Shown here one piece after another: positions 39,792 through 56,250 of a stretch of DNA of 64,000 nucleotides. The DNA is from Clostridia bacterium (GTDB taxonomy: Bacteria; Bacillota; DSM-521; Neomoorellales; SLTJ01). The notes under the pieces are model-generated. The model made no database searches and was not told where the DNA came from. It saw only the letters and a list, made by a program, of their open reading frames with translations. The position numbers and the translations under genes are program-made. The stretch covers positions 7,417 to 71,416 of the forward strand of contig SLTJ01000037.1 of assembly GCA_004347685.1 (NCBI GenBank). Direction: 5' to 3'. Positions within the stretch are counted from its first letter, which is position 1; each line of letters starts with the position of its first letter.

Positions 39792-39822
39792 GCGCGCCTG
39801 CCGGGAGAGGGGGTAGGAGTTA

Positions 39823-42987: not shown

Positions 42988-44251
42988 CAAACGCGCAAGC
43001 CTGCTGGCGGCCGGGCTGGCCCTGGTAGCCGGCCTGCTCCTGGTGTCACCGGCCGGAGACGGAGTGCAGGCCGCCGAAGAAAGCGGCGCCATATCCTTGA
43101 GCCTGACCCGGGCGCAGGAGATCGCCCTGGAAAACAACGACGACTTGAAACTAGCCCGCCTGGCCGTGGAAAACGCCAAAGTGGCCCTACGGGAAGCGGA
43201 AGATGCGGCCGACGACCTTCCTGCTGACAGCGTTACTTCCTACACTGGCAACCCTCTGTTGGGGGCTGCCGGTGCCGTCACCAAATACGTTACGCCGGTG
43301 CAGAAGGCCAATGAACTGGGTGCTGCCGAGCGGGCCCTGCAAGACGCTGAGAACGGGATACGGTTGCAAGTGGAGGCAATGTATTACACTCTTCTGGAAG
43401 CAGCGGAAACGGTAAAGAACAAGGAGGCGGCCCTAGGGAGGGCCAAGGAAAACCTGCGGCTGGCCCAGGCCCGCCAGGAGGCCGGCACCGCGGCCCAGGT
43501 AGAAGTTCTGGCCCAAGAACTGGCGGTTAACAGCGCCGAGACCGAACTGGAGGCTGCCCGCAACAACCATCAAAAGGCCTTGCTGGACTTCAACCGACTG
43601 CTGGGCCTACCCCTGGAAACCCAGGTGGAACCGACCGACGAGTTCACCTTCGAGCCCCTGGATGTCGCCCTTGGGGAATTCTTGGACCAGGAACTGAAAG
43701 GAAACAGCAGCCTCCTCAACGCCAGCGACGCCCTGAAGCTGGCCCGGGTCAACCTGGAGCAGGCCGGCCGGTTTTATACGCCCAATGTCTACACTTACCG
43801 CAAGGCCGCCTTCGGCGTGCAGCAGGCCGAAGCGGCTCAGCAGCGGGCCGAGACCCAATTGGAGGTGGCGGTGCGCAAGGCTTATCTAGACCTCTCCTCA
43901 GCCGCTGCCGCTTACCCGCTGGCAAACAAGGGGCTGGAACTGGCGCGGGAAAGGGAACGGCTAGTACGTTTGCAGTACGAGGTGGGTCTGGCGACTTCGC
44001 TTGATCTCACCGGAGCTGAAGACGCCCTGGCCGAGGCGGAGGCTGGGGTCCTGACGGCCATTCACCGCTACAACCTGGCCAAGACGCCCTTCAAGTACCG
44101 CCTGTTTACCACCGGAGCCGGCAGCGCTGCCGGCTCCGGCGCGGCTACCGGGGGAGGCCAGCCCGCGGGCCTGGCCTCCCCCGGAATGGCCGCCGCCACC
44201 CCAGGGCCAGACCTTACTATGATCGGCCCGGCCGAGGAGGTGAGGCCGTGA
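42980..44251 (+). CDS. TolC-family outer membrane efflux protein-like
   Basis: Signal-like N-terminus and the two-repeat coiled-coil pattern of OEP proteins (LSLTRAQEIALENNDDLKLARL...). GTG at 42980 after GGAGG. Gly/Ala-rich tail. Confidence 0.75.
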   Translation: MSNKRASLLAAGLALVAGLLLVSPAGDGVQAAEESGAISLSLTRAQEIALENNDDLKLARLAVENAKVALREAEDAADDLPADSVTSYTGNPLLGAAGAVTKYVTPVQKANELGAAERALQDAENGIRLQVEAMYYTLLEAAETVKNKEAALGRAKENLRLAQARQEAGTAAQVEVLAQELAVNSAETELEAARNNHQKALLDFNRLLGLPLETQVEPTDEFTFEPLDVALGEFLDQELKGNSSLLNASDALKLARVNLEQAGRFYTPNVYTYRKAAFGVQQAEAAQQRAETQLEVAVRKAYLDLSSAAAAYPLANKGLELARERERLVRLQYEVGLATSLDLTGAEDALAEAEAGVLTAIHRYNLAKTPFKYRLFTTGAGSAAGSGAATGGGQPAGLASPGMAAATPGPDLTMIGPAEEVRP

Positions 44252-44853
44252 CTACTGAGCGGGTTCCCCTAGAGGAAAGACGGAAGCAAATCCTGGAGTC
44301 TGCCATCCATGTCTTTGCCCAAAAGGGTTTTCACCAGGCGCTTGTGGAGGAAATCGCCGCCGAAGCCGGGATCGGCAAGGGCACGGTATACGAATACTTT
44401 CCCAGTAAAAAGGAGTTGTTCCGGGAGATAGTCAAGTATGCCGCCGGCATCTACCTTGACGCCATTGCTACCAGTCTAGCGGCCCCTACCACGGTAAAGG
44501 AAAAGCTAAGCGAGCTATTCCGTATCCACCTGGAGTTCCTCAGCAAGCACCGGGACATGGCCCGGCTGCTAGTAATGGAGTATCCCAGTTTGGGTGGAGA
44601 GATGTACGAGTGGCTGGTGGAACAACGCCGGCAAGTGACCCAGCTAGTGGAGAAGATGCTGGCCCAGGGCATAAGCCGACGGGAACTGCGCCCCATAGAC
44701 CAGGGCCTGGCCGCGCAGGTCATCCTGGGTGCCCAGGGGGCGGTGGGTAGCTGGGTTGTTTTCTGCGCCGACGCCCCGTCCTCCCCGGTGGCGATTGCGA
44801 CTGATACAGCAGATCTGCTTCTCCGAGGCATAGGCCACGAAGGGGAGAAGTAG
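44248..44853 (+). CDS. TetR/AcrR family transcriptional regulator
   Basis: N-terminal HTH ILESAIHVFAQKGFHQALVEEIAAEAGIGKGTVYEYF. Confidence 0.85.
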   Translation: MTTERVPLEERRKQILESAIHVFAQKGFHQALVEEIAAEAGIGKGTVYEYFPSKKELFREIVKYAAGIYLDAIATSLAAPTTVKEKLSELFRIHLEFLSKHRDMARLLVMEYPSLGGEMYEWLVEQRRQVTQLVEKMLAQGISRRELRPIDQGLAAQVILGAQGAVGSWVVFCADAPSSPVAIATDTADLLLRGIGHEGEK

Positions 44854-45093
44854 GGAGTGAGCAAAAAGGCCCGGGCAGAGCGTACGGCTGCGGGGTAGTA
44901 ACCCCGGCCGCGCGCCTGACCTGAGCCCTTCCCCGGCCTTTCCAGCCGCGTAACCGTGTGGCGGTTCCCTCAACCTTGCCGCGGGTGCTGTCCACAAGGC
45001 GGGAATAGCGCCTTAATCTAACGCCGGCAGTTAAGCGGAAGTGCCGGCCGGCCTCCTTGCCCCTGATTACCGTTTCGGCCCCCGGCCCCCAGT

Positions 45094-46602
45094 TTATGCT
45101 CCAGCCGGCTTTACTCCCAGAACTCTCAGGCTCCGCTCGTCCAGGCCCACGCCTCGCAACCGTTCCCGGCTGCCGCGCAGGCTCTCGATAGCATTTACCC
45201 CCAGGGAGCCCAGGACTTCCTTGATCTCCAGGGACCAGGCACGGATCAGGTTAACCAGGTTCTGTGCCCCTTCCTCCGGGTCCAGACGCCGCACCAGCTC
45301 CGGACGCTGGGTGGCGATGCCCCAGGCACAGTTGCCGGTATGGCATTTCTGGCAGACGCGGCATCCCAAGGCCACCAGGGCCGCAGTGCCGATGGCCACG
45401 GCGTCGGCCCCCAGGGCGATGGCCTTCACTACGTCGCCGCTATGGCGCATACCGCCAGCGGCGATGAGGGAGACGCTGTTCCGGATGCCTTCCTGCCGCA
45501 ACCGGTCGTCTACCGAGGCAATGGCCACCTCAATGGGGATGCCCACATGGTTGCGCACTATCATGGGTGTGGCCCCGGAGCCGCCCCGGAAGCCGTCAAT
45601 GTATATCATATCAGCCCCGGCCCGGGCGATGCCGCTGGCTATGGCGGCCACGTTATGCACGGCGGCGATCTTCACCGAAACCGGCCGGGTGTACCGGATG
45701 GCTTCCTTGAGGGCATAAATCAACTGGCTCAAATCTTCAATGGAGTAAATGTCATGGTGCGGGGCCGGCGACAAGGCGTCCGTGCCCACCGGGATCATCC
45801 GGGTCTCGGAGACCTCCTGGTTGACCTTTTCCCCGGGCAGATGGCCGCCGATACCCGGCTTGGCCCCCTGGCCGATCTTGATCTCGATGGCCGCCGAATG
45901 TTCCAGGTACTCCTGGTTCACCCCGAAACGGCCGGAGGCCACCTGGACCACGATGCGGTCGCTGTATGGATACAGGTCCTTGTGCAGCCCGCCCTCCCCG
46001 GTGCTCATCAGGATGCCGGCCTCCTTGGCCGCCCTGGCCAGGGCCTTATGAGCATTCAGGCTGATGGAGCCGTAGGACATGGGGGCGAAGATAATCGGCG
46101 TCTCGAGCTTGACCTGTGGAGCCAGCTCGGTGGCCAGCCGCACCTCGCCGTCCATGCCGTAACTCAGGTCCAGGCTGTTGGGCTTGCGGCCAAGATAAGT
46201 AGTGAGCTCCATGGGCTCGCGTAACGGGTCAATGGAGGGGTTGGTCACCTGACAGGCATCCAGTACCAGATGGTCAAAATACGACAGGTAGGGCCGGTCA
46301 TTGCCCATGCCGGTCAAAAGCATCCCGCCAGTGGTGGCCTGCTTCCAGATGGCCCCGCGGACCTCCGGGGTCCAGTGGGCATTTTCCTTATAAGCAATGG
46401 GGTTGGCCACCACGGTGATGGCGCTCTCCGGGCAGAAAGCCACACAGCGGTGGCAGGCCACGCATTTCCGGTGGTCGGCCACCACGCCGTCAGCAAAGGA
46501 CAGGGCGCCGAAGCTGCAGTTCAGGACGCAGCGCTTGCAACGGCGGCAGCGCTCCCGGTCCACCTGGACGATAAACTCGGCGGGTACGTTCCCGATGATC
46601 AC
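45094..46602 (-). CDS. Glutamate synthase FMN-binding domain protein with an N-terminal 2x[4Fe-4S] ferredoxin domain (archaeal-type GltB domain 2)
   Basis: CRRCKRCVLNC and CVACHRCVAFCP. Also QGAKPGIGGHLPG, DGFRGGSGATP and the 3Fe/4Fe cluster region CRVCQKCHTGNCAWG. Confidence 0.85.
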   Translation of the reverse strand: MIIGNVPAEFIVQVDRERCRRCKRCVLNCSFGALSFADGVVADHRKCVACHRCVAFCPESAITVVANPIAYKENAHWTPEVRGAIWKQATTGGMLLTGMGNDRPYLSYFDHLVLDACQVTNPSIDPLREPMELTTYLGRKPNSLDLSYGMDGEVRLATELAPQVKLETPIIFAPMSYGSISLNAHKALARAAKEAGILMSTGEGGLHKDLYPYSDRIVVQVASGRFGVNQEYLEHSAAIEIKIGQGAKPGIGGHLPGEKVNQEVSETRMIPVGTDALSPAPHHDIYSIEDLSQLIYALKEAIRYTRPVSVKIAAVHNVAAIASGIARAGADMIYIDGFRGGSGATPMIVRNHVGIPIEVAIASVDDRLRQEGIRNSVSLIAAGGMRHSGDVVKAIALGADAVAIGTAALVALGCRVCQKCHTGNCAWGIATQRPELVRRLDPEEGAQNLVNLIRAWSLEIKEVLGSLGVNAIESLRGSRERLRGVGLDERSLRVLGVKPAGA

Positions 46603-47687
46603 GCCACCACCCCCGCTTCGAGTTCGGCTATGACCGGCTCACCGGCCCGCGGGGCCCATACCTTATCCGGGGTACAGACTTCCCAAATGGCACACTCCTC
46701 GCTGGCCATGATCACCAGGTCGTCCTTGGTAGCACAAACCATAGGCCGCAGCTTGATGCGGTCATTGAAGCCCACCATCCTCCTCGCGGAGCCGATAATG
46801 AGGCTGAAGGGTCCGTTCAGCATCCCGGAACCATAAACCTGGCGGACAGCCGTGGCCAGCTCCCTTTTGGCCGGCTCCATGCGCTCGACGTCCTTCCAAA
46901 AGGGGGCCGAGAGGGCCATGCAGGCTATCTCCACCGGCAGGTGATGTCGCCGCTCCAGCAGGTCAAAGAGGTAGGCTACCACCTCGGTATCCGTTTGCAG
47001 GGTGCAGCGGTAACCGAACATCTCCAGGTAGCGCTTGTTGATCCCGTAGGATGATATCTCGCCGTTGTGCACCACTGACCATTCCAGCAGGGTAAAGGGG
47101 TGGGCTCCGCCCCACCAGCCTGGGGTGTTAGTGGGGAAACGGCCGTGGGCCGTCCACAGGTACCCCTCGTATTCCTCCAGGCGGTAGAAGTAGCCCAGGT
47201 CCTCAGGATAACCCACCCCCTTGAAGGCGCCCATATTCTTGCCGCTGGAAGCCACGTAGGCCCCGGGGATACGGTCGTTGATAAGGGTCACCCGGCTCAC
47301 CACGTAATCGTGCTCATCCACCTGCTGCCCGTTGACTTCCAGGACCCGGGGATCAACGCGCAGGAAATAGCGCCAGAGGAGGGGCGGATCCTCGATGGCC
47401 GGCGTATGCCGCACCGGGATGGGCTGGCTTTCGTCCACCTGGAAATTTTCCCGCAGGAAGGCGTCGGTCTCTTCCCGGGCCTGCTTGCTGTCAAAGATAA
47501 CATGGAAGGCATAGTGGTCGGCGTATTGCGGGTAAATCCCGTAAGCCGCAAACCCACCGCCCAGGCCGTTGGACCGGTCGTGCATGGCCGCGATGGATTT
47601 GACGATAACTTCACCGCTCATTTTTCGCCCCTGGCGGCTGATGATACCACTGATAGCACACCCTGACGGGATATAGAACTTCTCCAT
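46599..47687 (-). CDS. Class II glutamine amidotransferase domain protein (archaeal-type GltB domain 1)
   Basis: N-terminal nucleophile context SGCAISGI, Ntn-type GATase pattern. 4-nt overlap with the downstream FMN subunit gene. Confidence 0.85.
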   Translation of the reverse strand: MEKFYIPSGCAISGIISRQGRKMSGEVIVKSIAAMHDRSNGLGGGFAAYGIYPQYADHYAFHVIFDSKQAREETDAFLRENFQVDESQPIPVRHTPAIEDPPLLWRYFLRVDPRVLEVNGQQVDEHDYVVSRVTLINDRIPGAYVASSGKNMGAFKGVGYPEDLGYFYRLEEYEGYLWTAHGRFPTNTPGWWGGAHPFTLLEWSVVHNGEISSYGINKRYLEMFGYRCTLQTDTEVVAYLFDLLERRHHLPVEIACMALSAPFWKDVERMEPAKRELATAVRQVYGSGMLNGPFSLIIGSARRMVGFNDRIKLRPMVCATKDDLVIMASEECAIWEVCTPDKVWAPRAGEPVIAELEAGVVA

Positions 47688-47693
47688 AAAGCT

Positions 47694-49025
47694 TCACTCC
47701 TTCCGCCCCAGCAACTGCTTGAAATCGTCTCCAGGCGGGGCCGGTGACGGAGGCAATCCGAGTTTCTGCCGCGCCTTGACATCCGGGGCTCCCAGCCTGC
47801 CGCTCGTTAAGAATGATTTAACCGCCCCCTGCATGGAAGCCGGCGCCTTTTGCCGCTCCAGGCTCAGGTGTTTTAACGTGGTAAAAACCTTTTCCATACC
47901 GAACTTCTGCGGGCAGAGTTCGTAACAGGTATGGCACTCCAGGCACATCCAGATTTGCCGGCCAGACAGGAGAGCCTCGATCCTGCCGTCCAGCACTTCC
48001 CCGATCAGCCGGTTGGGTTCGAATTCCGGGGTGATCTCGGCTACCGGGCAGTCGCTCACGCAGGCACCGCAAGCATAGCAGTTGCGTACGGCCGCCAGAT
48101 CCAGGTGCCGGCGCACCTGGTCGAAGTCCCGGCGGTGCTTATCCCAGGACGCAAAGAAAGGCGCCAGGTCAACCCGGTGGCCGGAAAGGCCCAATTCTTC
48201 GGGTTCCAGGCCCATGGCCAGGCCCAGAAGTTCCACATAGCTGAAAACCGGCACGTGCAATTGTTCCCCCTGGCGTTGGGCCAGGTACTGTTTCTGGTCA
48301 AACTGCATGAAGCAGGACGGGCAACTCACCGTAATGGCGTCGGCGCCGGCCTCCTGCACCTCCAGCAGTTTCTTCCGGGCCAGGGCCAGGGAAGCCTCAC
48401 CCTCACCTACATTGCCCAGGGCGCCGCCGCAGCACATCATCTTGGTCTGGTACGAGAGGCTCTGAGCCCCCAGTGCCTCCACCAGGGCATCATACTTGGT
48501 GGGTTTCAAAGGATCGTCAAAGTGAATGGCCCAGCTTGGCCGCAGCAAATGGCACCCCGGGTGGACGGCGATCTTCAGGCCGTTCATGGGTTTTTCCAGC
48601 AACATGCGGATGCGGCCGGGGCCGATATCGTCGTGCAGTACCTCCAGCACGTGCTTGACCCGCACCCGGCCCCGGTAGACCAAGCCGATTTCTTCCAGGC
48701 TGGCATTTACTTCAGCCAGGGTGGCGGTGCTGGCCGCCAGTTCCGCCTGAGCCGACTTCAGGGTGCTGTAGCAACCGTTACAAAAGAGCAGCATGTCCAG
48801 CCCCTGGCGTTCGGCCAGGGCCAGATTCCGGGCCGCCGCCAGCAGCCACGCCCTATGGCCCCAGTTGGCCACCAGGTTCTTCTCCGGGCAGCAACTGAAG
48901 CCGTCCACCTCCACCCCTTCGATGCCGACCCGGGCCATCACCCCCCGGATGGATTTCTCCCAGAAGGCCAGCCGGGCGGGTATCTGGCAGCCCCAGTAAA
49001 ACACATACCGCGCGGCTTCGGCCAT
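47694..49025 (-). CDS. HdrB-like (two CCG domains) / HdrC-like (2x[4Fe-4S]) fusion protein
   Basis: CCG domain 1: YWGC..x33..FSCCP..x36..CNGC. CCG domain 2: HPGC...MMCCGG...CPSC. C-terminal CYACGACVSDCP and CLECHTCYELCP. Confidence 0.8.
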   Translation of the reverse strand: MAEAARYVFYWGCQIPARLAFWEKSIRGVMARVGIEGVEVDGFSCCPEKNLVANWGHRAWLLAAARNLALAERQGLDMLLFCNGCYSTLKSAQAELAASTATLAEVNASLEEIGLVYRGRVRVKHVLEVLHDDIGPGRIRMLLEKPMNGLKIAVHPGCHLLRPSWAIHFDDPLKPTKYDALVEALGAQSLSYQTKMMCCGGALGNVGEGEASLALARKKLLEVQEAGADAITVSCPSCFMQFDQKQYLAQRQGEQLHVPVFSYVELLGLAMGLEPEELGLSGHRVDLAPFFASWDKHRRDFDQVRRHLDLAAVRNCYACGACVSDCPVAEITPEFEPNRLIGEVLDGRIEALLSGRQIWMCLECHTCYELCPQKFGMEKVFTTLKHLSLERQKAPASMQGAVKSFLTSGRLGAPDVKARQKLGLPPSPAPPGDDFKQLLGRKE

Positions 49026-49027
49026 GC

Positions 49028-49285
49028 TCAGTCCTCCTCAAGGATGGCCAGAACTTCCCCTACCTTCACCACCTGACCTTCCTTGGCCACTATCTCCGCG
49101 ATGGTGCCGGCCGCCGGGGAGGGCACGTTAAATACCGCCTTGCTGGTAGTCATTTCCACCAGGTCGTCATCCTTCTCCACGTGATCTCCCTCGTCCACCA
49201 GCCAGTAGGAGACGGTAGCTTCCGGTGATTCCTCGGCCAGAAAGGGTAAACGGATCTCCATGGTTAAAACCTCCTTGAACTCCAT
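49028..49285 (-). CDS. Stand-alone lipoyl(biotinyl)-attachment domain protein (85 aa)
   Basis: MEIRLPFLAEESPEATVSYWLVDEGDHVEKDDDLVEMTTSKAVFNVPSPAAGTI... is the E2 lipoyl-domain pattern with the Lys in TSKA. Confidence 0.8.
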   Translation of the reverse strand: MEFKEVLTMEIRLPFLAEESPEATVSYWLVDEGDHVEKDDDLVEMTTSKAVFNVPSPAAGTIAEIVAKEGQVVKVGEVLAILEED

Positions 49286-49343
49286 GTTTTCTAGAGGAAA
49301 GTGCTCGAAAGCCTTTATCCGGCGGCAGGGCTGGCGCCTCCAC

Positions 49344-50720
49344 CTACGCGTGGATGGCCCGGCCTAGGGCCGCTTCGGCGGCTTCGGCCAGGGCCTCAGG
49401 CAGGGTGGGATGGGCGTGGATCACTTCGGCCAGTTGCGTCGCGCTCCAGCCGCCGGCCACGGCCAGGGCCGCCTCGCCGATCAGGTCGCTGGCATGGGGG
49501 CCGTGGATGTGTATACCTACCAGGCGGCCGCTCCCGGCCTCGGAGATAATCTTAACCGCGCCCTCGGCCTGGCCCATGGCCAGGGCCTTGCCGCTGGCCG
49601 TAAAGGGGAACTTGCCCACCTTCACTTCCATCCCGCGGGCGGCAGCTTCGTCCTGGGTCAGTCCTACACTGGCAATTTCGGGCTCAGTAAAAATACAGTT
49701 GGGGATTACCCGGTAGTCCATGGCCACCCTTTCCCCCAGGGCGTTGGCCGCCGCTGCCTTGCCCTGGGCGCTGGCCACGTGGGCCAGTTGCACCTTGTTG
49801 GTGATGTCGCCGATGGCGTAGACGCCGGGAAGGCTCGTCTCCAGGTACTCGTTTACCAACACTTCTCCCCTGGGGCCAAGCTGGACCCCGGCTTCGGCCA
49901 GCCCGATCCCGGCCGTGTTGAATACCCGGCCGATGGAGATGAGAGCCTTCTCCACCTTGATCTCCTGACCGCCCTCCAGTTCGGCCACCACCCAGCCGCC
50001 GTCCACCTGTATCCGAGCAATGGCGGCTTTAGTGTGGATCTCAATTCCTTGCCGCTTCAAAATGCTCTGCTGCCGGCGGGCCAGTTCCCGGTCCAAGGTG
50101 GGGAGGATATTGGGCATCATCTCCACGATGGTGACCCTGGTACCCATGGCCTGGTAAAAGGTGGCCATTTCACACCCTACCACCCCGCCGCCGATGATCA
50201 GGAGGCTCTCCGGTATCTCCTCCAACTCCAGAGCCTCGTTGCTGGTGATCACCGTCCGACCGTCATAGCCCAGGGAGGTGATCATGGCCGGCTCGCTGCC
50301 GGTGGCTAAGATGATGTTCCTGGCCTCGATGGCCTCGGTGCTACTGCCGGCCACGACGGCCAGGCGGCCCGGCCCAGCCAGAGAAGCCCGGCCGGAAATA
50401 ACCTCTACCTTGTTCTTGCGGAGCAGGGTCGCGATACCCTGACGCAACTGCTCACCCACCGCCTCTTTACGCTGGCGCAGGACTTCCGGGTTTATCCTGT
50501 AACCGTCCACCTCCACCCCGAAGGCAGCCGCCTGCTTGATCTGCTCCACCAGGGTGGCGGTAGCCAATAAGGTCTTGGTGGGGATGCAGCCCCGGTTCAG
50601 ACAGGTCCCGCCCAAGAGTCCCTGCTCCACCAGGCAGACACTGCCCCCGAGCTGGGCGGCCCGGATGGCTGCCACGTATCCCCCCGGCCCGCCACCCACA
50701 ATTGCCACGTCGAAAGCCAC
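49344..50720 (-). CDS. lpdA: Dihydrolipoyl dehydrogenase
   Basis: GGGPGGY FAD motif, redox disulfide GGTCLNRGCIPTK, NAD motif GGGVVGCE, C-terminal HAHPTLPE His-Glu dyad. Confidence 0.9.
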   Translation of the reverse strand: MAFDVAIVGGGPGGYVAAIRAAQLGGSVCLVEQGLLGGTCLNRGCIPTKTLLATATLVEQIKQAAAFGVEVDGYRINPEVLRQRKEAVGEQLRQGIATLLRKNKVEVISGRASLAGPGRLAVVAGSSTEAIEARNIILATGSEPAMITSLGYDGRTVITSNEALELEEIPESLLIIGGGVVGCEMATFYQAMGTRVTIVEMMPNILPTLDRELARRQQSILKRQGIEIHTKAAIARIQVDGGWVVAELEGGQEIKVEKALISIGRVFNTAGIGLAEAGVQLGPRGEVLVNEYLETSLPGVYAIGDITNKVQLAHVASAQGKAAAANALGERVAMDYRVIPNCIFTEPEIASVGLTQDEAAARGMEVKVGKFPFTASGKALAMGQAEGAVKIISEAGSGRLVGIHIHGPHASDLIGEAALAVAGGWSATQLAEVIHAHPTLPEALAEAAEAALGRAIHA

Positions 50721-50739
50721 TGTTTCTCCCCTTTCCTAG

Positions 50740-51477
50740 CTAATATGCATATAGGCGCCCGTAGGGCCGGCTGGAGACCGGCACCAGCTTAATGAACCTG
50801 GCCCGGCGCACGTTTTCATAGTCCAGGGCAAAATCCTGGCAGTATTCCTGTAAGTATTTGTCCAGCGCTTCCTCATCCTGCGGCTCCAGGTCGAAAACGG
50901 CCACCTCTTGGCCCAAATAAGAGGGATCCACTTCTCCCCGCAGGTAGATGACGCCGCCATGCATACCCGTGCCCAGGTAATCCCCTGTCAGCCTCTCCCC
51001 CGGCCCGCAGTCCAGCCCCAGGAGGATCGCTACCCCCCCGGCCATATACTCCCCGAAAAAGTCACCGGCCGTACCGCCGGCGATCACCACCGGCACCTGG
51101 CGGCGGTATTCCTTCATATGGATGCCCACCCGGTAGCCGACATGGCCGCGGATATGGATTTTCCCGCCCCGCATGCCGTAGCCGATCACATCCCCGGCAC
51201 TGCCGTGCACCACGATCTTGCCCTCGTTCATGGTGTTGCCGATGGCGTCCTGGCCGTCGGCGTAAACCGTGATCTCCGGGCCGTCGAGAAAAGAGCCCAG
51301 GTCGTTGCCGGGCACGCCGTGAATGGTGATCTTCACCCGGGATCTGATGCCGCTCCCCAGGTAGCGCTGGCCGTTCACCCCCACCAGCTCGATCTCCTTT
51401 TCCCCTCTGTCGGCCGCTTCCCGCAGCATCTCATTCAACCGCTTATACGGGATACCATGTGCTTCAATCCGGTACAT
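50740..51477 (-). CDS. Glutamate synthase GXGXG-domain protein (archaeal-type GltB domain 3)
   Basis: Repeated beta-helix GxxGxxxG pattern (HGSAGDVIGYGMRGGKIHIRGHVGYRVG, GTAGDFFGEYMAGG). ATG at 51477 after GGGGGAGGGG. Confidence 0.85.
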   Translation of the reverse strand: MYRIEAHGIPYKRLNEMLREAADRGEKEIELVGVNGQRYLGSGIRSRVKITIHGVPGNDLGSFLDGPEITVYADGQDAIGNTMNEGKIVVHGSAGDVIGYGMRGGKIHIRGHVGYRVGIHMKEYRRQVPVVIAGGTAGDFFGEYMAGGVAILLGLDCGPGERLTGDYLGTGMHGGVIYLRGEVDPSYLGQEVAVFDLEPQDEEALDKYLQEYCQDFALDYENVRRARFIKLVPVSSRPYGRLYAY

Positions 51478-51492
51478 ATTCCCCTCCCCCAA

Positions 51493-51610
51493 ACAAAAAA
51501 CGCCCTATCAGGCCCAACCGTGCAGTTGGACCCAACAGGACGTCTCTGCCCCAAATAACGAGGACGCCGTTGCCCTCTAACCCGATCTTGAGTTGGCAAC
51601 GGCCATTATA
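51493..51610 (-). promoter_or_regulatory. Promoter plus ANTAR-type dual-hairpin antiterminator/terminator leader of the GOGAT operon
   Basis: Extended -10 TGgTATAAT (51605-51610). P1 is GAGGGC-AACGGC-GUCCUC (51560-51577). P2 is GGGGC-AGAGAC-GUCCU (51537-51552). Both hexaloops have A1 and G4. The P2 3' arm CGUCCU pairs with AGGGCG to close a terminator followed by UUUUUU. Confidence 0.7.
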
Positions 51611-51684
51611 CCACTGCGGGCTGACAAAAGCAATTATTTTTCCCCATGTATACAGGAATAATGCGGCTGGCGGGCAAAAATTGC

Positions 51685-52272
51685 CTACCTTGGCTGCTGG
51701 AGTTCGTGGGCCAGGATGATGGCTTCAGCGATGGACTTCATGGAGGTGCACTTGTCCATGCTCTGTTTCTGGATGCGGCGGAAAGCCTCGGCCTCGCTCA
51801 GTCCCAGGGTCTCCATCAAAATGCCTTTGGCCCTCTCCACCAGCTTACGCGTTTCCAAGGTTTCCTTGAGTTTGTTGACCTCTTCCTCAAGCTGGACGAT
51901 CTTGCGGAAGTTAAGCATGGCCGACTCCACCGCCGGTATTAAATTAGCGGCCTGGACCGGGCGGGAAACAAGGGCGAAAACCCAGGACTCGCGCGCCTTC
52001 TGGATAAAATCGCTTTGCCACGAAGACGCCACCAGTAACACCGGAGCCAGGTGGTCTTCAGCAATGATCTTGGCCACTTCCAGTCCGCCCATCCCGGGCA
52101 GTTCAGCCTCGGCAATAACTATATCTGGAGAGAGGGCCCGGATTTGCCGCAGGGCCGAAGGCCCGTCCTCAGCCTCGCCGGTCACCAAGTAACCTTCCTT
52201 GGTCAGTATCTGCTTGATTCTCTTGCGCTGATTTGCATCGGCCAGAGCGATAAATATCTTTGATCGGTCCAT
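51685..52272 (-). CDS. ANTAR-domain antiterminator with a pseudo-receiver domain (RR1)
   Basis: C-terminal ANTAR RKLVERAKGILMETLGLSEAEAFRRIQKQSMDK. The receiver-like N-terminus has DIVIAEAELPGMGG where DxxxxD(I/L)xMP is expected. Confidence 0.85.
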   Translation of the reverse strand: MDRSKIFIALADANQRKRIKQILTKEGYLVTGEAEDGPSALRQIRALSPDIVIAEAELPGMGGLEVAKIIAEDHLAPVLLVASSWQSDFIQKARESWVFALVSRPVQAANLIPAVESAMLNFRKIVQLEEEVNKLKETLETRKLVERAKGILMETLGLSEAEAFRRIQKQSMDKCTSMKSIAEAIILAHELQQPR

Positions 52273-52412
52273 TGGCCACCTCAAATCGAAGTCCGGCTTG
52301 TAAAGACAACCTCACCCGGGGCGACATTCCCTTAAGCGTGGGCCGCAATTCCTTCGGCCACCTGCCCGGCCCCCGGTCCGCGAAAAGGCACACGCCCATG
52401 TGACCGCCAAGA

Positions 52413-52517
52413 GAAGAAAAAGCATCCCCAAGACAAGTACCTTGTTGTAGGGACGCCGTTGCCCACCAGACTATTATTCAGTTCCGCCGGGTATTAGCCC
52501 GAACAACTACCATGATA
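52413..52517 (-). promoter_or_regulatory. Promoter plus ANTAR-type hairpin/terminator leader ahead of RR1
   Basis: TTGTCT-17-TATCAT. Hairpin GGGC-AACGGC-GUCC at 52451-52464. Its 3' arm CGUCCC pairs with GGGAUG to form a terminator followed by CUUUUUCUU. Confidence 0.6.
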
Positions 52518-52573
52518 TCTGAGGGCCGGGAAAAAGACAATAATCGCCGCGCAAAAATATTGTATACACCCAC

Positions 52574-53905
52574 CTAGAACTTGGTCAGGTATTCCTGCAC
52601 CTCCCAGGGGTGTACCTGGGAGCGATACCGCTCCCACTCAATGCGCTTGGCCTCAATAAACCGGTCCAGGATGTGGGGACCCAGAGCTTCCTTTATCACG
52701 TTATTTGCCTCCAGGGCGGCCAGGGCCTGGCTCAGGTCCTGGGGCAGAGTGGCAATTCCCAAAGCCCGCCGTTCAGCTTCAGTCATAGCGTAGATGTTCC
52801 GGTCACAGGGCGGCGGCGGCTCGATCTTGTTCTCTATCCCGTCCATGCCAGCGGCCAGGCAGACGGCCAGGGCCAAGTACGGATTGCAAGTGGGGTCCGG
52901 AGAGCGGAATTCAATCCGGGTAGACGGCCCCTTCTTGGCTGGGATCCGGATCAGGGGGCTGCGGTTCTGGTAAGACCAGGCAATGTACACCGGGGCCTCA
53001 AAGCCGGAAACCAGCCGTTTATATGAATTTACCGTCGGGCTGGTTATGGCGGCAATGGCCGGGGCGTGGGCCAGCAGGCCGCCGATGTAATACCTGGCCA
53101 CCTGGCTCAACTGGTCCGGCGTGTCCGGGTCGTAAAAGGCGTTCACGCCATTCTGCTCCAGAGACTGGTTCAGGTGCATCCCGGAGCCGGGAACCCCGTA
53201 AATGGGTTTGGCCATGAAGGTGGCGTGCAGGCCGTGCCGCTGGGCGATGGTGCGGACGACAAACTTGAAGGTGACGATCTTATCAGCCATGTCCAGGGCG
53301 TTGGAGTATTTAAAGTCGATTTCATGCTGACCCGGGGCCACTTCGTGGTGGGAAGCTTCCACCTCGAAGTCCATGTCCTGCAGGGTAAGCACGATATCCC
53401 GGCGGGCGTTTTCCCCCAGATCCACCGGGCTGAGGTCAAAGTAGCCGCCCTGGTCGTGGGTGATCAGGGTTGGCCGCCCTTCCGCGTCGGTATGAAAGAG
53501 GAAAAACTCAGCCTCCGGGCCCACCTGCATGGTAAAACCCCTCTTCGCGGCCTGTTCCGTAACCCGGCGCAAGTTCCAGCGCGGGCAGCCGATAAAGGGC
53601 GTGCCGTCCGGCATATACACATCACAGATCATCCGGGCCACGGCCCCCTCCTGGGGTCGCCACGGAAAAATCACAAAACTAGCCGGGTCCGGCCGCAGGT
53701 ACATATCAGATTCTTCAATGCGGACAAAGCCTTCGATGGAGGAGCCATCAAACATCAACTCCCCTGTCAGGGCCTTGTCAAGCTGTTCCCGGGTAATGGC
53801 CACGTTCTTGAGGACACCAAAGATATCGGTAAATTGCAGGCGGATAAACTTGACGTTATGTTCCTTCACCAGTTCCTTGACCTCTTCGCTAGTGAAAGCC
53901 GCCAT
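52574..53905 (-). CDS. glnA: Glutamine synthetase type I (copy 2)
   Basis: 443 aa, collinear with and highly similar to copy 1 (same [19 protein letters not shown] motifs). Confidence 0.9.
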
Positions 53906-53983
53906 GACTTACTCCTTTCTCCCAGCTTGAAGCACTTGCCAACCCGTGAGAGTTTTTACTGCCACTAACCTGGCACAGGTGGT

Positions 53984-54060
53984 ATTATACCACAAGCAGG
54001 CCGGGTGGGGAACAAAAAGAGTCTGCCATCGGGAAAGATAATTTCCCAAGGTGGCAGACC
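53984..54060 (-). terminator. Intrinsic terminator after the GltB-like gene, followed by an extended -10 promoter for glnA-2
   Basis: Minus strand GGUCUGCCA..GGGAAA-UUAUC-UUUCCC..UGGCAGAC plus UCUUUUUG (54013-54060), then TGgTATAAT (53984-53989). Confidence 0.7.
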
Positions 54061-54172
54061 CTTCACTTGACGCTAGAGGTGACCCCAGGAGAATATTGCC
54101 AAAAGCTTTCTAGCCGGCGGTAGGCTGGAGCCCGGGTTTTTCAATAACCTCTTAGGAGCATGTTCCAGCCGC

Positions 54173-55750
54173 TTACCCCAGGATTTCCTCTACCTCTTCG
54201 GCGTCCACTTCCATGAGGTAGCGGATGCCGGTGATCTCGGCCGCTTCCCGGGTGAGGGCCGCCAGGTCGTCCCGGGTGATGAGGTCCAGGCTGAACTTGC
54301 GCGCCCCGCACATGAGCTGGCGCAGGCCCTGGGCCAGGCGCTCAAAATAGGTGTACACACCGACGGCCCCGACCGGCAGGTCAGCATACCTGTCGCCTAC
54401 CAGACCCTTTACCTCCAGGGCCAAGGCAAATACCTGCTCCAATCTCTCCCCGTATTTCTTGTATTCCGTGGGTACCTTTCCTTCGTTGACTCTCTCGCCT
54501 ACGAACCTCCCTACCATGGCCGCGGCTAAAGGGGAGCGGGACATACCGATGGCCTTGATGTGGGGGGCTCCCAGGGCCAGGCCCTTGAACATGTGGTCCT
54601 CCAGGGTAAAGCCCCCGGCCATGGCCACGGGCGGGATGTAGGCGCCCTTGGCTGCCAGGCGGTCCAGGTATTTAGTAAGCATGGCCTCGAGGTAGACGGT
54701 GGGCACGCCCCATTCGTTCATCATCCGCCAGGGGCTCATGCCCGTACCGCCACCGGCCCCGTCCACCGTGAGCAGGTCGAGTTTCGCGTCCGAAGCGAAC
54801 TTCACAGCCCGGGCCAGGTCGGCCGGCCGGTAAGCACCGGTCTTGAGGAAGATGTATTTGGCGCCGGCGCGGCGCAATTCCTCTACCCGACCGTGGAAGG
54901 ATTCCTCGCTCACCATGCCGATGCGGGAATGGCGCTCAAACTCCTTGAAGGCCCCCTCCCGGTAAGAGGCCGCTACCTGCGGGTCAGTGGGGTCCGGGAG
55001 CACGATGTAGCCGCGGCTCTTGAGCTGCAGGGCCCGCTCCAGGCTCCCCAGCTTCACCTCGCCGCCGATGTCCTTGGCCCCCTGGCCCCATTTTACCTCC
55101 ACCGCTTCCACGCCCAGCTTCTCAATGGCATACTCCTGGACTCCCAAGCGGCCATCTTCCACATTGGCCTGCACGGCAATAAAGCCGTAGCCACGATACC
55201 AGTCCTGGAAGACCTTTACGCGCCTGGCCAAGTCGGGGGAACGGACCACCCGGCCCTCCTTCAGTTCGAGATTGGGGTCCATGCCGCATACATTCTCGCC
55301 GATGGAAATGCCTACGCCGGAAATGGCAGCCCCGGCTGCCAGGTGCTCCCAGTTATTCGCAGCCACGTTGGTGGACCCCATGGCGGCAATGACCACTGGC
55401 AGGCGGAGTTTCAGGTCGCCCCCGGCTCCCAGCCGGGTCTGGAGGTTAACCGCCGGGAAAATGGCTACATCGCTGTCGGCTTCTATCCCGTGAGCACCCA
55501 CAGCAGTACCCATGATGTTAAAGTGAGAAAGATCCACCGGGTAGTCCTTCTGGGAGGCTGCCGTGACCTGGCCGAAGGGCTGGGGATAGAGGAATTCCTT
55601 GCCCCGGACGGCTGACTTGGCTATCTCGCAGTAACCTACGCAGCCGTCGAGGCAGGTAACGCACATGCCGCTATAAGGGCAAACATCTCCCTTTACCCGG
55701 TGCCTGGTAAGGGTGGCCTCGGTGGCGTTGGTTCCCAAACTAAGTGTCAT
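54173..55750 (-). CDS. Glutamate synthase-related FMN-binding protein (GltB domain-2 family) with an N-terminal Cys-rich segment
   Basis: WGQGAKDIGGEVK, DGAGGGTGMSP, N-terminal CPYSGMCVTCLDGCVGYC. ATG at 55750 after AGGAGGAGG. Confidence 0.8.
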   Translation of the reverse strand: MTLSLGTNATEATLTRHRVKGDVCPYSGMCVTCLDGCVGYCEIAKSAVRGKEFLYPQPFGQVTAASQKDYPVDLSHFNIMGTAVGAHGIEADSDVAIFPAVNLQTRLGAGGDLKLRLPVVIAAMGSTNVAANNWEHLAAGAAISGVGISIGENVCGMDPNLELKEGRVVRSPDLARRVKVFQDWYRGYGFIAVQANVEDGRLGVQEYAIEKLGVEAVEVKWGQGAKDIGGEVKLGSLERALQLKSRGYIVLPDPTDPQVAASYREGAFKEFERHSRIGMVSEESFHGRVEELRRAGAKYIFLKTGAYRPADLARAVKFASDAKLDLLTVDGAGGGTGMSPWRMMNEWGVPTVYLEAMLTKYLDRLAAKGAYIPPVAMAGGFTLEDHMFKGLALGAPHIKAIGMSRSPLAAAMVGRFVGERVNEGKVPTEYKKYGERLEQVFALALEVKGLVGDRYADLPVGAVGVYTYFERLAQGLRQLMCGARKFSLDLITRDDLAALTREAAEITGIRYLMEVDAEEVEEILG

Positions 55751-56122
55751 CTTTATCCTCCTCCTGTTTTCCTCTTCCATTTCTTAACAAGAAATAATCC
55801 CAAAAGGTATTGCCGAATTCTCGGAGGTCGGGCAAACGCGACTGCGGCAGTGCAGGCTATCTACACGGTAAACAGGCGCCGGACCGCCAGCCCCGGAAAG
55901 CCAGGCGAAGTCTTGCCGGCAGCCTCCCGGATGTGAAACTCCGTCCGGGAGCAGCCGGGACAAGACCGGTCCGGCCGTCCCGGCACGCCAGGCTGGAACA
56001 AATAACCGTCACCCCTTTCCCTAGTTTCTGCCGGAGCAACGGTCACGCGGGTCAAAAGGCATCGCTGCTTTTCGTCCCGCTGCTGGTATCGCTGCGGATA
56101 ACATGAGCATCTGCCCTAAGAC

Positions 56123-56250
56123 ACAAAAAAACTGCCTGGCGGCAGCTTTTCTGCTGATTTTAGCCGCTTGAGGACGCCGTTGCCCTCGCGCACAATATCC
56201 CATTGTTATTTGCCAAGTTCTTATTATAGCAGAACCAGGGCTGGCATCAA
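56123..56250 (-). promoter_or_regulatory. Promoter plus ANTAR-type hairpin/terminator leader ahead of the GltB-like/glnA-2 unit
   Basis: TTGATG-16-TATAAT (56250-56223). P1 is GAGGGC-AACGGC-GUCCUC (56170-56187). P2 is CAGC-AGAAAA-GCUG, overlapping the terminator GCUGCC-GCCA-GGCAG plus UUUUUUUU. Confidence 0.65.

Follow-up and report, generated by a model that had tools for sequence, protein, structure and literature searches.

A split archaeal-type glutamate synthase operon of a Clostridia bacterium with an HdrB-HdrC fusion, a dihydrolipoyl dehydrogenase and a stand-alone lipoyl domain

The GltB-GltD and ferredoxin-dependent glutamate synthases (GOGAT) share an Ntn amidotransferase, an FMN/Fe-S synthase domain and a GXGXG beta-helix with the enzyme encoded in the 64,000-nt stretch of DNA analyzed here (hereafter, the window). 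In the window, however, each of these modules has a polypeptide to itself, the FMN piece carries an extra N-terminal 2x[4Fe-4S] ferredoxin domain, and an HdrB-HdrC fusion (HdrBC) holds the position of the partner subunit, GltD being absent. A swappable fourth, electron-input subunit of split GOGAT has been discussed (PMC3087415; PMC9012536). The putative F420-dependent glutamate synthases of methanogens and ANME, in which split GltB pieces occur with an FrhB-like fourth subunit, resemble the window enzyme in being split and in having an exchangeable electron-input subunit; in the window this subunit is HdrBC-like, with CCG domains, rather than FrhB-like, which points to a thiol/disulfide couple instead of F420H2.

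In methanogens, TfrAB oxidizes thiols at a CCG-domain Fe-S subunit, from which a flavoenzyme receives the electrons to reduce a carbon substrate. NCBIfam detects TfrB similarity in the window HdrBC, but the acceptor enzyme differs, and the thiol in the window would be protein-bound dihydrolipoyl, not CoM-SH plus CoB-SH; to our knowledge, Bacillota synthesize neither CoM nor CoB. The best match in both sequence and fold is methanogenic HdrABC (HdrB, 38-39% identity and TM 0.90-0.92; HdrC, TM about 0.6; AF2 model with pLDDT 86.7), with both CCG motifs and both HdrC clusters intact, although a single chain contains both B and C, HdrA and MvhD are absent, and the protein scores under the TIGR03288 cut-off (271 vs 345.15). 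Non-cubane clusters terminate the electron wire in HdrABC; therefore, in a soluble GOGAT, such a site would be sensible only as an entry or exit point for a two-electron substrate.

Two further systems for comparison involve lipoyl proteins. In the Mycobacterium tuberculosis Lpd-DlaT(SucB)-AhpD-AhpC relay, NADH, Lpd and a lipoyl domain supply reductant to an enzyme other than a 2-oxoacid dehydrogenase, as proposed here for the window, but there the lipoyl domain belongs to a full E2 and serves a thioredoxin-like protein plus a peroxiredoxin rather than GOGAT or an Fe-S disulfide reductase. The sHdr-LbpA system of sulfur oxidation pairs CCG proteins of the Hdr-like kind with a lipoate-binding carrier that has lipoate-assembly genes of its own; in archaeal sulfur oxidizers a link to NAD(H) via dihydrolipoamide dehydrogenase (DLD) has been proposed, and precedents both for partnerships of lipoyl proteins with Hdr-like proteins and for coupling to Lpd are discussed there (PMC6067878). 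The arrangement examined here has these elements in common with it, but the parallel drawn in a preliminary description of this DNA does not extend to membership: the sHdrA/B1/B2/C1/C2 set is missing from the window, there is no HdrA, the carrier is E2-type instead of GcvH-like, and the Hdr part most resembles methanogen HdrB/HdrC. The proposed electron flow is also opposite, and the client is a nitrogen-assimilation enzyme. As the preliminary description had supposed, we found no description of an Lpd/Lip/HdrBC glutamate synthase arrangement in the literature searched, and the operon suggests an undescribed route for NADH electrons into ammonia assimilation.

Six genes behind one leader

Features of the locus, with domains assigned by Pfam and NCBIfam profile searches, are as follows.

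45094..46602, minus strand: ferredoxin plus FMN glutamate-synthase domain protein (FMN), 502 aa; Glu_synthase PF01645, 467.9 bits
46599..47687, minus strand: class-II (Ntn) glutamine amidotransferase subunit (GAT), 362 aa; PF00310 (GATase_2)
47694..49025, minus strand: HdrB-HdrC fusion, 443 aa; two CCG domains and a 4Fe-4S dicluster domain
49028..49285, minus strand: stand-alone lipoyl-domain carrier (Lip), 85-aa ORF; Biotin_lipoyl PF00364, 66.9 bits
49344..50720, minus strand: dihydrolipoyl dehydrogenase (Lpd), 458 aa; TIGR01350, 544 bits vs cut-off 408.8
50740..51492, minus strand: GXGXG (GltB C-terminal) domain protein, 250 aa; PF01493, 110.8 bits
51499..51544, minus strand: terminator-like hairpin, then a T-run
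51536..51577, minus strand: ANTAR-type dual hairpin in the operon leader, GAGGGC[AACGGC]GTCCTC, 6 nt, TGGGGC[AGAGAC]GTCCTG
51605..51613, minus strand: candidate promoter, extended -10 TGGTATAAT, read by eye, with a weak -35 TTGCTT 17 nt upstream
51685..52284, minus strand: ANTAR response regulator; PF03861 and PF00072
52574..53905, minus strand: glutamine synthetase type I; TIGR00653, 584.7 bits; context of a nitrogen-assimilation island
54173..55780, minus strand: GltS-FMN-domain paralogue, role unassigned; PF01645, 59.9 bits

The ORF listing places all six genes on the minus strand at 45094-51492, with gaps of 19 nt (GXGXG-Lpd), 58 nt (Lpd-Lip), 2 nt (Lip-HdrBC) and 6 nt (HdrBC-GAT) and a 4-nt overlap between GAT and FMN. 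Coordinates, order and spacing agree exactly with the preliminary description, whose domain calls were upheld by the profile searches and whose motifs CLNRGC, HAHPTLPE and TSKA are present in the translations. A single ANTAR antitermination leader precedes all six genes and, together with the tight Lip-HdrBC, HdrBC-GAT and GAT-FMN spacing, argues for co-expression. Both hexaloops of its dual hairpin fit the AxxGxx pattern, and a similar pair of hairpins stands ahead of the cluster at 16 of 79 related loci, as against 44 of 2554 background windows. The 5' arm of the terminator overlaps the second ANTAR hairpin, and thus the two structures are mutually exclusive. The response regulator at 51685..52284 is likely to be the regulator of this leader; ANTAR regulators flank the cluster at 25 of 80 loci. 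The candidate extended -10 element went unreported in a consensus promoter scan because its -35 is weak. Homologues of the GltS-FMN paralogue adjoin GS/GOGAT genes in five other loci (L093, L019, L024, L034, L083).

HdrBC as the fourth gene of split glutamate synthases

Translation of the GXGXG gene probably begins with the ATG at 51477, behind the ribosome-binding site GGGGGAGGGG; its homologues are 244-246 aa long, and orthologues 49-68% identical occur in 62 loci. In the amidotransferase, a short propeptide is followed by a conserved IPSGC motif that includes Cys10, and an SGC-type motif is present in 69 of 82 homologous ORFs. The FMN protein combines its N-terminal ferredoxin domain (C19-C29 and C47-C57) with the cluster motif C414xxC417xxC420xxxxC425, which the commonest variants in a set of 71 homologues also show, and matches solved GltB (7mfm_G) with 230 bits. 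A tblastn search of the window with the GltD of L090 gave a best E of 0.19, bearing out the earlier report that no GltD is nearby, and none was found in 85 HdrBC-type loci.

HdrBC contains two complete CCG motifs (C13, C45C46, C82xxC85; C158, C198C199, C235xxC238) and two CxxCxxCxxxC motifs (C316-C326 and C361-C371); all HdrB and HdrC cluster-binding cysteines are invariant, and the match to HdrB 5odc_B reaches 230 bits. At 66 of 80 species-representative loci, drawn from Methanosarcinales/ANME, Nitrospirota, Actinomycetota and other groups, hdrBC is found immediately before GAT-FMN-GXGXG. GltD, Lpd and Lip are missing from these loci; the complete set of hdrBC plus three GltB pieces is present in 62. 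An archaeal contig still shows the link at 35% identity. The HdrBC-like protein is thus a conserved fourth gene of split GOGAT in at least 10 phyla, occurring there without Lpd or Lip. Of the embedded Lpd/lipoyl/HdrBC module previously proposed, only Lpd(+Lip) stands as an addition, found in one Bacillota clade, HdrBC being a core partner and no insert. Nor does the apparent interruption of the GltB pieces by electron-input genes have special meaning: the orders in the window and in L007/L008 are related by circular permutation of a single ring, HdrBC>GAT>FMN>GXGXG>Lpd>Lip. In 66 of the 80 HdrBC-GOGAT loci a 7-kb neighborhood contains neither Lpd nor Lip, and the flanks share no redox gene that is conserved. 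Only three positions separate the Lpd-linked HdrBC clade from all other HdrBC, and the active site does not look retuned to a new substrate.

Lpd and the lipoyl carrier

Lpd has the redox disulfide Cys40/Cys45 (CLNRGC), the HAHPTLPE dyad and a GGGVVGCE...VTIVEM signature pointing to NAD(H), an assignment that we take from comparison with E. coli Lpd. Lip had been described as an 85-aa lipoyl domain with its Lys in TSKA; ORF and motif stand, but the protein probably starts at Met9 (49261), giving 77 aa, which is the length of a database protein identical to it across the matched region. The predicted lipoyl-lysine (Lys49 of the 85-aa ORF, codon 49139-49141) is invariant in A2 and falls opposite the lipoyl-Lys of SucB in alignment; the residue before it is Ser in place of the usual Asp. 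The best PDB matches are E2 lipoyl domains, and the GCV_H score is 20.8 bits, under the 22.2 cut-off; judged by sequence, Lip is an E2-type lipoyl domain, not a GcvH-like one. The whole window contains no second lipoyl domain or GcvH, nor any E1 or E2, in line with what had been noted before.

The Lpd(+Lip) addition is found in one Bacillota clade, monophyletic in a tree, in every Lpd-containing locus of which Lpd lies directly upstream of hdrBC (8 of 9 GTDB clade loci, plus the window and Carboxydothermus hydrogenoformans). Lip sits between the two in six of those eight GTDB loci and in the window, and the same slot has received lipB-lipA in L008 and lipA in L006; the order Lpd-(LipB-LipA)-Lip-HdrBC is kept through two different operon permutations. 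The cultured C. hydrogenoformans and Desulfotomaculum copahuensis have Lpd-HdrBC with no Lip gene at the locus. The cluster Lpd does not branch off as a deep clade of its own (Lpds of cultured Bacillota share 55-61% identity), and Neomoorella has glnA-lpd-lipA without hdrBC within 7 kb. Independently of the Bacillota lipA/lipB linkage, five loci of the ANME-2/Methanogaster type have an LplA gene behind the cluster.

Lip-family, Lpd and ligase genes also lie beside other enzymes. In L090, L096 and L100, whose chromosomal context is the same, an Lpd-ligase-Lip cassette stands next to conventional GltB-GltD, and Lip homologues adjoin a TfrB-like fumarate reductase, another CCG-domain enzyme (L098), and MetVF (L125, L129, L169), which fits the lipoyl protein as a dithiol electron carrier. 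Most of 80 metagenomic Lip loci have no Hdr-like neighbor, and in roughly 25 the cassette stands beside LeuD-like, IDH-like or MDH-like genes (with an aminotransferase in some) and no CCG protein. Because of these gltBD and Hdr-free loci, the carrier is not exclusive to split GOGAT.

A proposed electron path and its alternatives

The arrangement is not unique to one genome, and its recurrence in many lies far beyond chance; comparative evidence supports Lpd, Lip and the HdrBC-like protein as functional partners of the glutamate synthase genes. The lipoamide relay into GOGAT suggested earlier gains from this synteny, with the amendments that HdrBC is not inserted and Lip not exclusive. We lean toward reading the six genes as one nitrogen-regulated operon for a split "archaeal-type" glutamate synthase in which HdrBC replaces GltD as electron-input subunit and to which a dedicated NADH-driven dithiol supply was added in a Bacillota lineage. 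From the observed gene content, motifs, fold, conserved synteny and regulatory leader, we infer lipoylation, complex formation, GOGAT activity and the direction of electron flow. NADH would reduce the FAD and Cys40/Cys45 disulfide of Lpd, and Lpd in turn would reduce the lipoyl-lysine on the 77-aa carrier. The dihydrolipoyl arm would then give up its electrons at the pair of non-cubane [4Fe-4S] clusters in the HdrB-like domain, the reverse of heterodisulfide reduction, as in thiol:fumarate reductase. From there the electrons would run through two HdrC-type [4Fe-4S] clusters into the FMN subunit, where the pair of clusters in the ferredoxin domain and the CxxCxxCxxxxC cluster would lead to FMN, which would reduce 2-iminoglutarate formed from 2-oxoglutarate and the ammonia freed by the Ntn-Cys amidotransferase subunit. 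Against this path count the 66 loci without Lpd or Lip, the scarcely altered HdrBC of the Lpd-linked clade, the two cultured species whose locus has no Lip gene, the cassettes beside GltB-GltD, the metagenomic Lip loci lacking an Hdr-like neighbor, and the failure of the cluster Lpd to form a deep clade.

An alternative that we consider unlikely but worth weighing keeps HdrBC as the electron entry and makes the donor a thioredoxin-type housekeeping thiol system, a low-molecular-weight thiol or a non-thiol donor, the Lpd-ligase-Lip cassette being a general-purpose lipoyl redox module with other clients, merely housed in a nitrogen island. The 66 loci lacking Lpd and Lip, the cassettes that remain beside gltBD once hdrBC is gone, the roughly 25 CCG-free metagenomic pairings and the near identity of the HdrBC active-site region between clades all favor it, whereas the constant Lpd-hdrBC adjacency within the clade, the 2-nt Lip-hdrBC gap in the window, the insertion of lipA/lipB precisely between lpd and hdrBC, and the leader common to six genes speak for the dedicated supply. 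It is improbable, in our estimate, that the three GltB-like pieces form a related amidotransferase/FMN enzyme analogous to the N-methylglutamate synthase MgsABC, with the Hdr-like and lipoyl parts used differently: none of the three reaches an NCBIfam equivalog cut-off, a GltS-FMN paralogue of unassigned role lies nearby, and we know of no characterized split GOGAT-type enzyme with a defined donor, but the FMN piece scores strongly against both PF01645 and solved GltB, the Ntn-Cys and Fe-S cysteines are conserved, and in several phyla the neighbors of the cluster include glnA, PII, amt and ANTAR or AsnC regulators.

The Hdr-like/Lip/Lpd branch could also be an electron exit, with entry via the ferredoxin domain and partial outflow to NAD+ through HdrBC, Lip and Lpd for redox balancing or confurcation-like coupling. 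Methanogenic HdrB is normally a disulfide reducer, and the FMN subunit has its own ferredoxin-like domain; the sHdr-LbpA proposal likewise sends dihydrolipoamide electrons to NAD+ via DLD (PMC6067878). We nevertheless hold an exit to be very improbable: the loci contain no HdrA, NfnB or EtfAB as a module for flavin-based bifurcation, low-potential electrons would be wasted, and the ferredoxin domain, found in every FMN subunit checked, is more simply read as a wire from the partner subunit to FMN. The least probable reading, to our mind, is that local gene shuffling placed Lpd and Lip here while they serve a glycine cleavage system or other lipoate enzyme encoded elsewhere. Close Lpd homologues, of 55-61% identity, are common among Bacillota with glycine cleavage systems, and the Neomoorella locus would agree with it; against this are the gene order that survives two permutations, the tight spacing, the distinct stand-alone E2-type Lip family with its Ser before the lipoyl-Lys, and the independent linkage of LplA to the same GOGAT type in ANME-2.

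The operon and its leader

Six minus-strand ORFs lie at exactly the positions that the preliminary description had assigned to them, with the gaps of 19, 58, 2 and 6 nt and the one 4-nt overlap reported there, and searches with Pfam and NCBIfam models upheld their identities:

50740-51492, minus strand: GXGXG domain, the beta-helix piece of GltB (PF01493, 110.8 bits against a cut-off of 32.5)
49344-50720, minus strand: dihydrolipoyl dehydrogenase, Lpd (TIGR01350, 544 bits against a cut-off of 408.8)
49028-49285, minus strand: stand-alone lipoyl domain, Lip (PF00364, 66.9 bits against 22.1)
47694-49025, minus strand: two CCG domains and a 4Fe-4S dicluster domain, HdrBC (PF02754, 83.7 bits)
46599-47687, minus strand: class-II GATase, GAT (PF00310, 49.5 bits against 19.9)
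45094-46602, minus strand: 2x[4Fe-4S] ferredoxin domain and Glu_synthase, FMN (PF01645, 467.9 bits)

The true start of the GXGXG gene is likely the ATG at 51477, and that of the lipoyl protein likely Met9 (49261), which would give a product of 77 aa. The source genome is a Clostridia MAG, in which the HdrBC-like protein is annotated as "hypothetical protein D9V47_11475". The GAT nucleophile, Cys10, sits in IPSGC, and an SGC-type motif occurs in 69 of 82 homologous ORFs; the Fe-S cysteines of the FMN subunit are C414/C417/C420/C425, and CxxCxxCxxxxC is the pattern in the commonest variants among 71 homologues. The FMN piece matches solved GltB (7mfm_G) with 230 bits, and the GltB equivalog score of 293.9 bits falls under a cut-off of 1047 that belongs to the only model available in NCBIfam, that of a fused 1490-aa protein; we found no solved structure for a split glutamate synthase (GOGAT). 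Both the redox-active GGTCLNRGC of Lpd and its C-terminal His-Glu dyad HAHPTLPE are legible in the translation. Its fingerprint GGGVVGCE...VTIVEM suggests NAD(H) as the cofactor, judged by comparison with E. coli Lpd.

The absences noted in the preliminary description also stand: tblastn with the GltD of L090, a locus with conventional gltB-gltD, returned nothing better than E = 0.19 in the window, and no genes for a 2-oxoacid dehydrogenase or the glycine cleavage system were found among the large window ORFs scanned. Neither a second lipoyl domain nor GcvH occurs in the 64-kb window, and lipA, lipB and lplA are missing from it.

A GltS-FMN paralogue, glnA and a gene for an ANTAR response regulator (51685-52284) lie 5' of the operon. 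Three elements occupy the 190-nt leader ahead of GXGXG:

leader before GXGXG: extended -10 element TGGTATAAT
51577-51536: two hexaloop hairpins, GAGGGC[AACGGC]GTCCTC and TGGGGC[AGAGAC]GTCCTG, located by reading the sequence and with a custom scan
51544-51499: 20-bp terminator hairpin with a T-run, overlapping the second hexaloop hairpin

An ANTAR antitermination target is expected to have just such a layout, with dual hexaloop hairpins and an overlapping terminator. Both leader hexaloops fit AxxGxx, and the operon combines the features of ANTAR regulation, namely two such hairpins, competition of the second with a terminator, and an ANTAR regulator. Of 79 related loci, 16 have similar dual hairpins 5' of the cluster, an enrichment over the background, in which 44 of 2554 windows have them. 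Because the leader is shared, the nitrogen-linked control of the GltB pieces extends to Lpd and Lip. An Rfam search of 44000-57000 gave nothing meaningful and no family matching the leader, and a consensus promoter scan did not pick up the leader promoter. Between glnA and the ANTAR regulator gene we also noted a lone hairpin, GGGC[AACGGC]GTCC (about 52452-52466, minus strand), whose hexaloop is that of the first leader hairpin; a second hairpin was not found there.

HdrBC and Lip in other genomes

With each GTDB species represented by a single genome, a scan gave 80 HdrBC loci (four contigs stop less than 1 kb past hdrBC, and in one, L064, hdrBC stands at the contig start). GAT lies directly 3' of hdrBC in 66 of them, usually followed by FMN and GXGXG and with Lpd absent, so that the HdrBC-like protein, initially regarded as part of an inserted module, is better described as a core subunit; all four genes occur together in 62. 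Archaeal carriers include Methanoperedens, ANME-2 and Methanosarcinaceae, and bacterial carriers include Nitrospirota, Nitrospinae, Coriobacteriia/Actinomycetes, Chloroflexi, Armatimonadota and Thermodesulfobacteriota, as well as candidate phyla. An archaeal contig still keeps the order AsnC-HdrBC-GAT-FMN-GXGXG at 35% identity, and in a search of the full library about 30 clusters of full-length B-C fusions rank above canonical HdrBs of ~290 aa. No HdrBC-type locus gave a match to GltD (tblastn with the L090 protein), and clustering of the flanks revealed neither a recurrent HdrA-like gene nor any other recurrent redox gene.

All 18 cysteines, ten of the CCG and eight of the HdrC type, are invariant in the HdrBC alignment; the CCG motif is present twice (Cx31-39CCx35-36CxxC), together with two HdrC-type [4Fe-4S] motifs. 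The N-terminal 290 residues match HdrB of the solved HdrABC-MvhAGD complex with 230 bits, and the C-terminal part matches HdrC. An AF2 model (pLDDT 86.7, pTM 0.83) gave Foldseek TM(target) values of 0.90-0.92 to HdrB (38-39% identity) and 0.57-0.62 to HdrC. Under the NCBIfam equivalog models the protein stays below the cut-offs (TIGR03288, 271 against 345.15 bits; TIGR03290, 59.4 against 160 bits). Clade-specific substitutions were considered as a marker of a change in substrate, and the only three found (L19, Q244, D415) were uninformative. In six Methanosarcinales-type loci (L016, L023, L035, L036, L041 and L050), separate genes for HdrC (~190 aa) and HdrB (~290 aa) of canonical size adjoin the GOGAT cluster. 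They lie directly 3' of GXGXG in five; in L050 they are upstream of hdrBC, on the other strand. The HdrB part is 34-38% identical to the fusion, and the pair may act as a partner that regenerates the heterodisulfide.

In a neighbour-joining tree, the HdrBC proteins of Bacillota fall into a single clade. Lpd is directly upstream of hdrBC in eight of the nine GTDB members of this clade, with Lip between them in six of the eight, and metagenomic contigs show the arrangement as well. The window has the order GXGXG-Lpd-Lip-HdrBC-GAT-FMN, and two other loci (L007, L008) have GAT-FMN-GXGXG-Lpd-...-Lip-HdrBC. These are rotations of one ring, and thus the GltB pieces, which had seemed to be interrupted by electron-input genes, have been permuted rather than invaded. 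Lipoate genes can join the series (lipB and lipA between lpd and lip in L008, lipA between lpd and hdrBC in L006). The cultured Carboxydothermus hydrogenoformans Z-2901 has the genes at about 622-633 kb of CP000141.1 (L093), where the order on one strand is GAT-FMN-GXGXG-ANTAR-GlnA-like-FMN paralogue-GlnA-Lpd-HdrBC, with 49% identity in HdrBC and no Lip ORF in the locus; Desulfotomaculum copahuensis likewise has Lpd-HdrBC without Lip. No Lip, GcvH acceptor or Lpd was found within 7 kb in non-Bacillota HdrBC loci, and Lpd with Lip is a front end specific to Bacillota. A distinct clade for the cluster Lpd was rejected, many Bacillota Lpds being equally close.

Independently of this, in five ANME-2/Methanogaster-type loci (L036 at 7091-8176, L038, L039, L041, L042), an LplA-type ligase gene lies directly 3' of HdrBC-GAT-FMN-GXGXG, the whole inside a PII-Amt-GlnA island; no lipoyl acceptor or Lpd was found within 7 kb of it. 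A survey of archaeal genomes reported that Methanosarcinales have no lipoylation pathway (PMC3904984). In Neomoorella humiferrea (L091, 5658-9301), glnA, lpd and lipA stand side by side, and both hdrBC and gltB-type genes are absent from the surrounding 7 kb; this is a further link of lipoate genes with nitrogen-assimilation genes in Bacillota.

The Lys of T-S-K-A is invariant in 16 members of the Lip family and aligns with the lipoyl-Lys of SucB, and the best PDB matches are E2 lipoyl domains. The canonical D-K-A context is absent, Ser standing in place of Asp and all GOGAT-linked members having T-S-K-A; the flanking Asp is relevant to E1 recognition rather than to lipoylation. Genes of the lipB/lipA or lplA type adjoin Lip in L008, L086, L090 and many metagenomic loci, and this neighbourhood lends indirect support to the view that the lysine may be lipoylated.

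A scan of metagenomes gave 80 stand-alone Lip loci, in which the usual 5' neighbours are Lpd, an LplA/LipB-type ligase and often LipA. Six of these belong to HdrBC-GOGAT clusters. In two others, and in L090 from a separate search, the cassette follows a conventional gltB-gltD:

L090, 235-7656: gltB-gltD, then (Lpd)-LipB-like-(LipA)-Lip
L096, 5-6228: the same
L100, 4-6225: the same

L090 and L096 share downstream synteny (ACT, PemK, C26 peptidase, amidohydrolase) with L007/L093, where D. copahuensis and C. hydrogenoformans carry Lpd-HdrBC; the downstream genes of L100 differ. The pattern looks like replacement in situ of the split GOGAT and HdrBC with the lipoyl cassette retained. One bacterial metagenome contig (L098, 13-6861) carries a fumarate-reductase flavoprotein, a TfrB-like subunit composed of 2Fe-2S, 4Fe-4S and two CCG domains, KorA-KorB-KorG, a stand-alone Lip and a 2Fe-2S protein, and is thus the second case of a CCG-domain enzyme alongside a member of the Lip family. 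The electron donor of methylene-THF reductase in anaerobes is debated, and in three loci Lip lies beside or between metV and metF, the genes for this enzyme:

L125, 5995-7867: Lip with MetVF
L129, 12-1612: Lip with MetVF
L169, 1175-2981: Lip with MetVF

About 25 Lip loci share a housekeeping-type synteny with an Omnitrophota contig (L086, 1041-9452), in the order LeuCD-like aconitase-family protein, IDH-like, MDH/LDH-like, Lpd, LplA/B-type ligase, (LipA), Lip. Aminotransferases flank this block in L086 and lie 3' of Lip in some loci, and query matches, recurrent flank families and a CCG search found no E1/E2 and no CCG protein there. From the two surveys it follows that hdrBC co-varies with the split GOGAT and that the Lpd-ligase-Lip cassette is modular, with several neighbours.

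Proposed electron entry into the split enzyme

On the most economical interpretation, the HdrBC-like protein stands in for GltD and is the subunit at which electrons enter. The non-cubane clusters of HdrABC form its terminal catalytic site, and the best explanation for such a site in a soluble biosynthetic enzyme would be the oxidation of a dithiol, as in thiol:fumarate reductase. Beyond gene content, motifs, fold and synteny, we infer the following path. The dithiol of the Bacillota clade would be the dihydrolipoyl arm of Lip, recharged by Lpd with NADH; electrons would pass from the HdrC-type clusters to the ferredoxin-domain clusters, the CxxCxxCxxxxC cluster and FMN, which would reduce 2-iminoglutarate formed with ammonia from the Ntn-Cys amidotransferase. 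A potential of -0.29 V is low enough for reducing GltS-type Fe-S/FMN centres. This is the value given for the lipoamide couple, -0.29 V (PMC6067878).

In its function the operon would resemble a GOGAT whose electron-input module has been exchanged. The GltBD, HdrABC and sHdr families do not include it, because features that define them were sought and not found. A conventional GltBD with an overlooked GltD is excluded by tblastn, and the window protein, unlike HdrABC, lacks an HdrA (or HdrE/D) partner. The proposed front end resembles the mycobacterial Lpd-DlaT-AhpD system, which is a lipoyl relay, and also the lipoyl relay of sHdr-LbpA (PMC6067878). Membership of sHdr-LbpA, which the pairing of carrier and Hdr-like protein had brought to mind, is excluded, with no GcvH-like carrier, HdrA or extra Hdr set: the operon carrier is E2-type (GCV_H 20.8 bits, under the cut-off of 22.2), and clustering of the flanks of HdrBC-type loci brought out no further gene family of Hdr or sulfur-transferase type that recurs. 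A parallel exchange of the electron-input module is the FrhB-like fourth subunit of an F420-dependent split GOGAT, an enzyme that the literature treats as putative or as awaiting proof (PMC9012536, PMC3087415).

In the main rival to this lipoyl relay, the cassette would be a lipoyl redox module of general use, and HdrBC would be fed by another donor. This rival owes its standing to five weak points of the relay: Lpd and Lip are missing from most HdrBC-GOGAT loci, Lip is absent even from some Lpd-HdrBC loci, the cassette is kept next to GltBD, the HdrBC pocket is nearly the same across clades apart from the three clade-specific positions, and the divergence of the cluster Lpd does not exceed that of ordinary Bacillota Lpds. 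A minor alternative would make the GltB pieces an N-methylglutamate-synthase-like enzyme, but the context of glnA, PII, amt and ANTAR, together with the domain scores, favours GOGAT. A broader, tentative reading seems to us possible and somewhat improbable. In it the HdrB-HdrC fusion would mark a widespread class of thiol-driven GOGAT with lineage-specific donors, and Lip, Lpd and ligase would serve anaerobes generally as an electron carrier in the form of a protein-bound dithiol. The donor would be a small lipoylated carrier recharged by NADH via Lpd in Bacillota, and CoM-SH/CoB-SH or a lipoyl protein in Methanosarcinales/ANME; clients of the cassette would include HdrBC-GOGAT, bacterial TfrAB-like fumarate reductases and MetVF methylene-THF reductases.

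Ammonia enters biomass mainly through glutamate synthase, and as far as we know no physiological electron donor has ever been established for the split "archaeal-type" GOGAT. The broader reading, if true, would answer what feeds it. A conserved HdrB/HdrC-like fourth subunit offers a concrete, testable answer, to which the Bacillota version would add a defined front end from NADH through Lpd to a lipoyl carrier. If this is true, nitrogen assimilation would join 2-oxoacid dehydrogenases, glycine cleavage and sHdr among the processes that lipoate serves, the orphan lpd and lipoyl genes of strict anaerobes would be explained, and HdrB-type non-cubane cluster chemistry would extend to a biosynthetic enzyme. 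No paper that connects glutamate synthase to Hdr-like or lipoyl components came up in full-text literature searches, in agreement with the earlier impression that the arrangement is undescribed for GOGAT; a transcriptome paper on Calderihabitans maritimus (Bacillota) annotates split GOGAT-like genes with a generic NAD(P)H reaction. Since there are cultured carriers (C. hydrogenoformans Z-2901 and D. copahuensis), the idea is directly testable, and with it the donor question for split GOGATs.

Other genes of the window

The window is rich in nitrogen-metabolism genes, among them a second glutamine synthetase (22691-24133, minus strand) and a glutamine-hydrolysing asparagine synthase (57748-59664, plus strand); a class-III aminotransferase lies at 26454-27923 (minus strand). 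The GltS FMN-domain paralogue (54173-55780, minus strand; 535 aa) reaches only 59.9 bits with PF01645, has a Cys-rich N-terminus and gave no NCBIfam match. Its homologues adjoin GS/GOGAT genes in C. hydrogenoformans (L093, 6791-8371), Coriobacteriia (L083), Methanosarcinaceae (L019 and L024, divergent from hdrBC) and Nitrospinae (L034, between FMN and GXGXG). Multihaem cytochrome c motifs (Cytochrome_C7 / paired CXXCH) and a copper-amine-oxidase N-terminal-like domain occur together in a 704-aa protein (32523-34637, minus strand). Running towards the 3' end of the GOGAT operon, in convergent orientation, is what looks like an RND efflux gene set followed by a TetR-family regulator (38493-44853, plus strand); the Pfam scan covered TetR (44248-44853), and the rest was read from translations and a weak barrel-sandwich match:

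38493-39791, plus strand: putative efflux adaptor
39823-42987, plus strand: putative efflux pump
42947-44251, plus strand: putative outer-membrane factor
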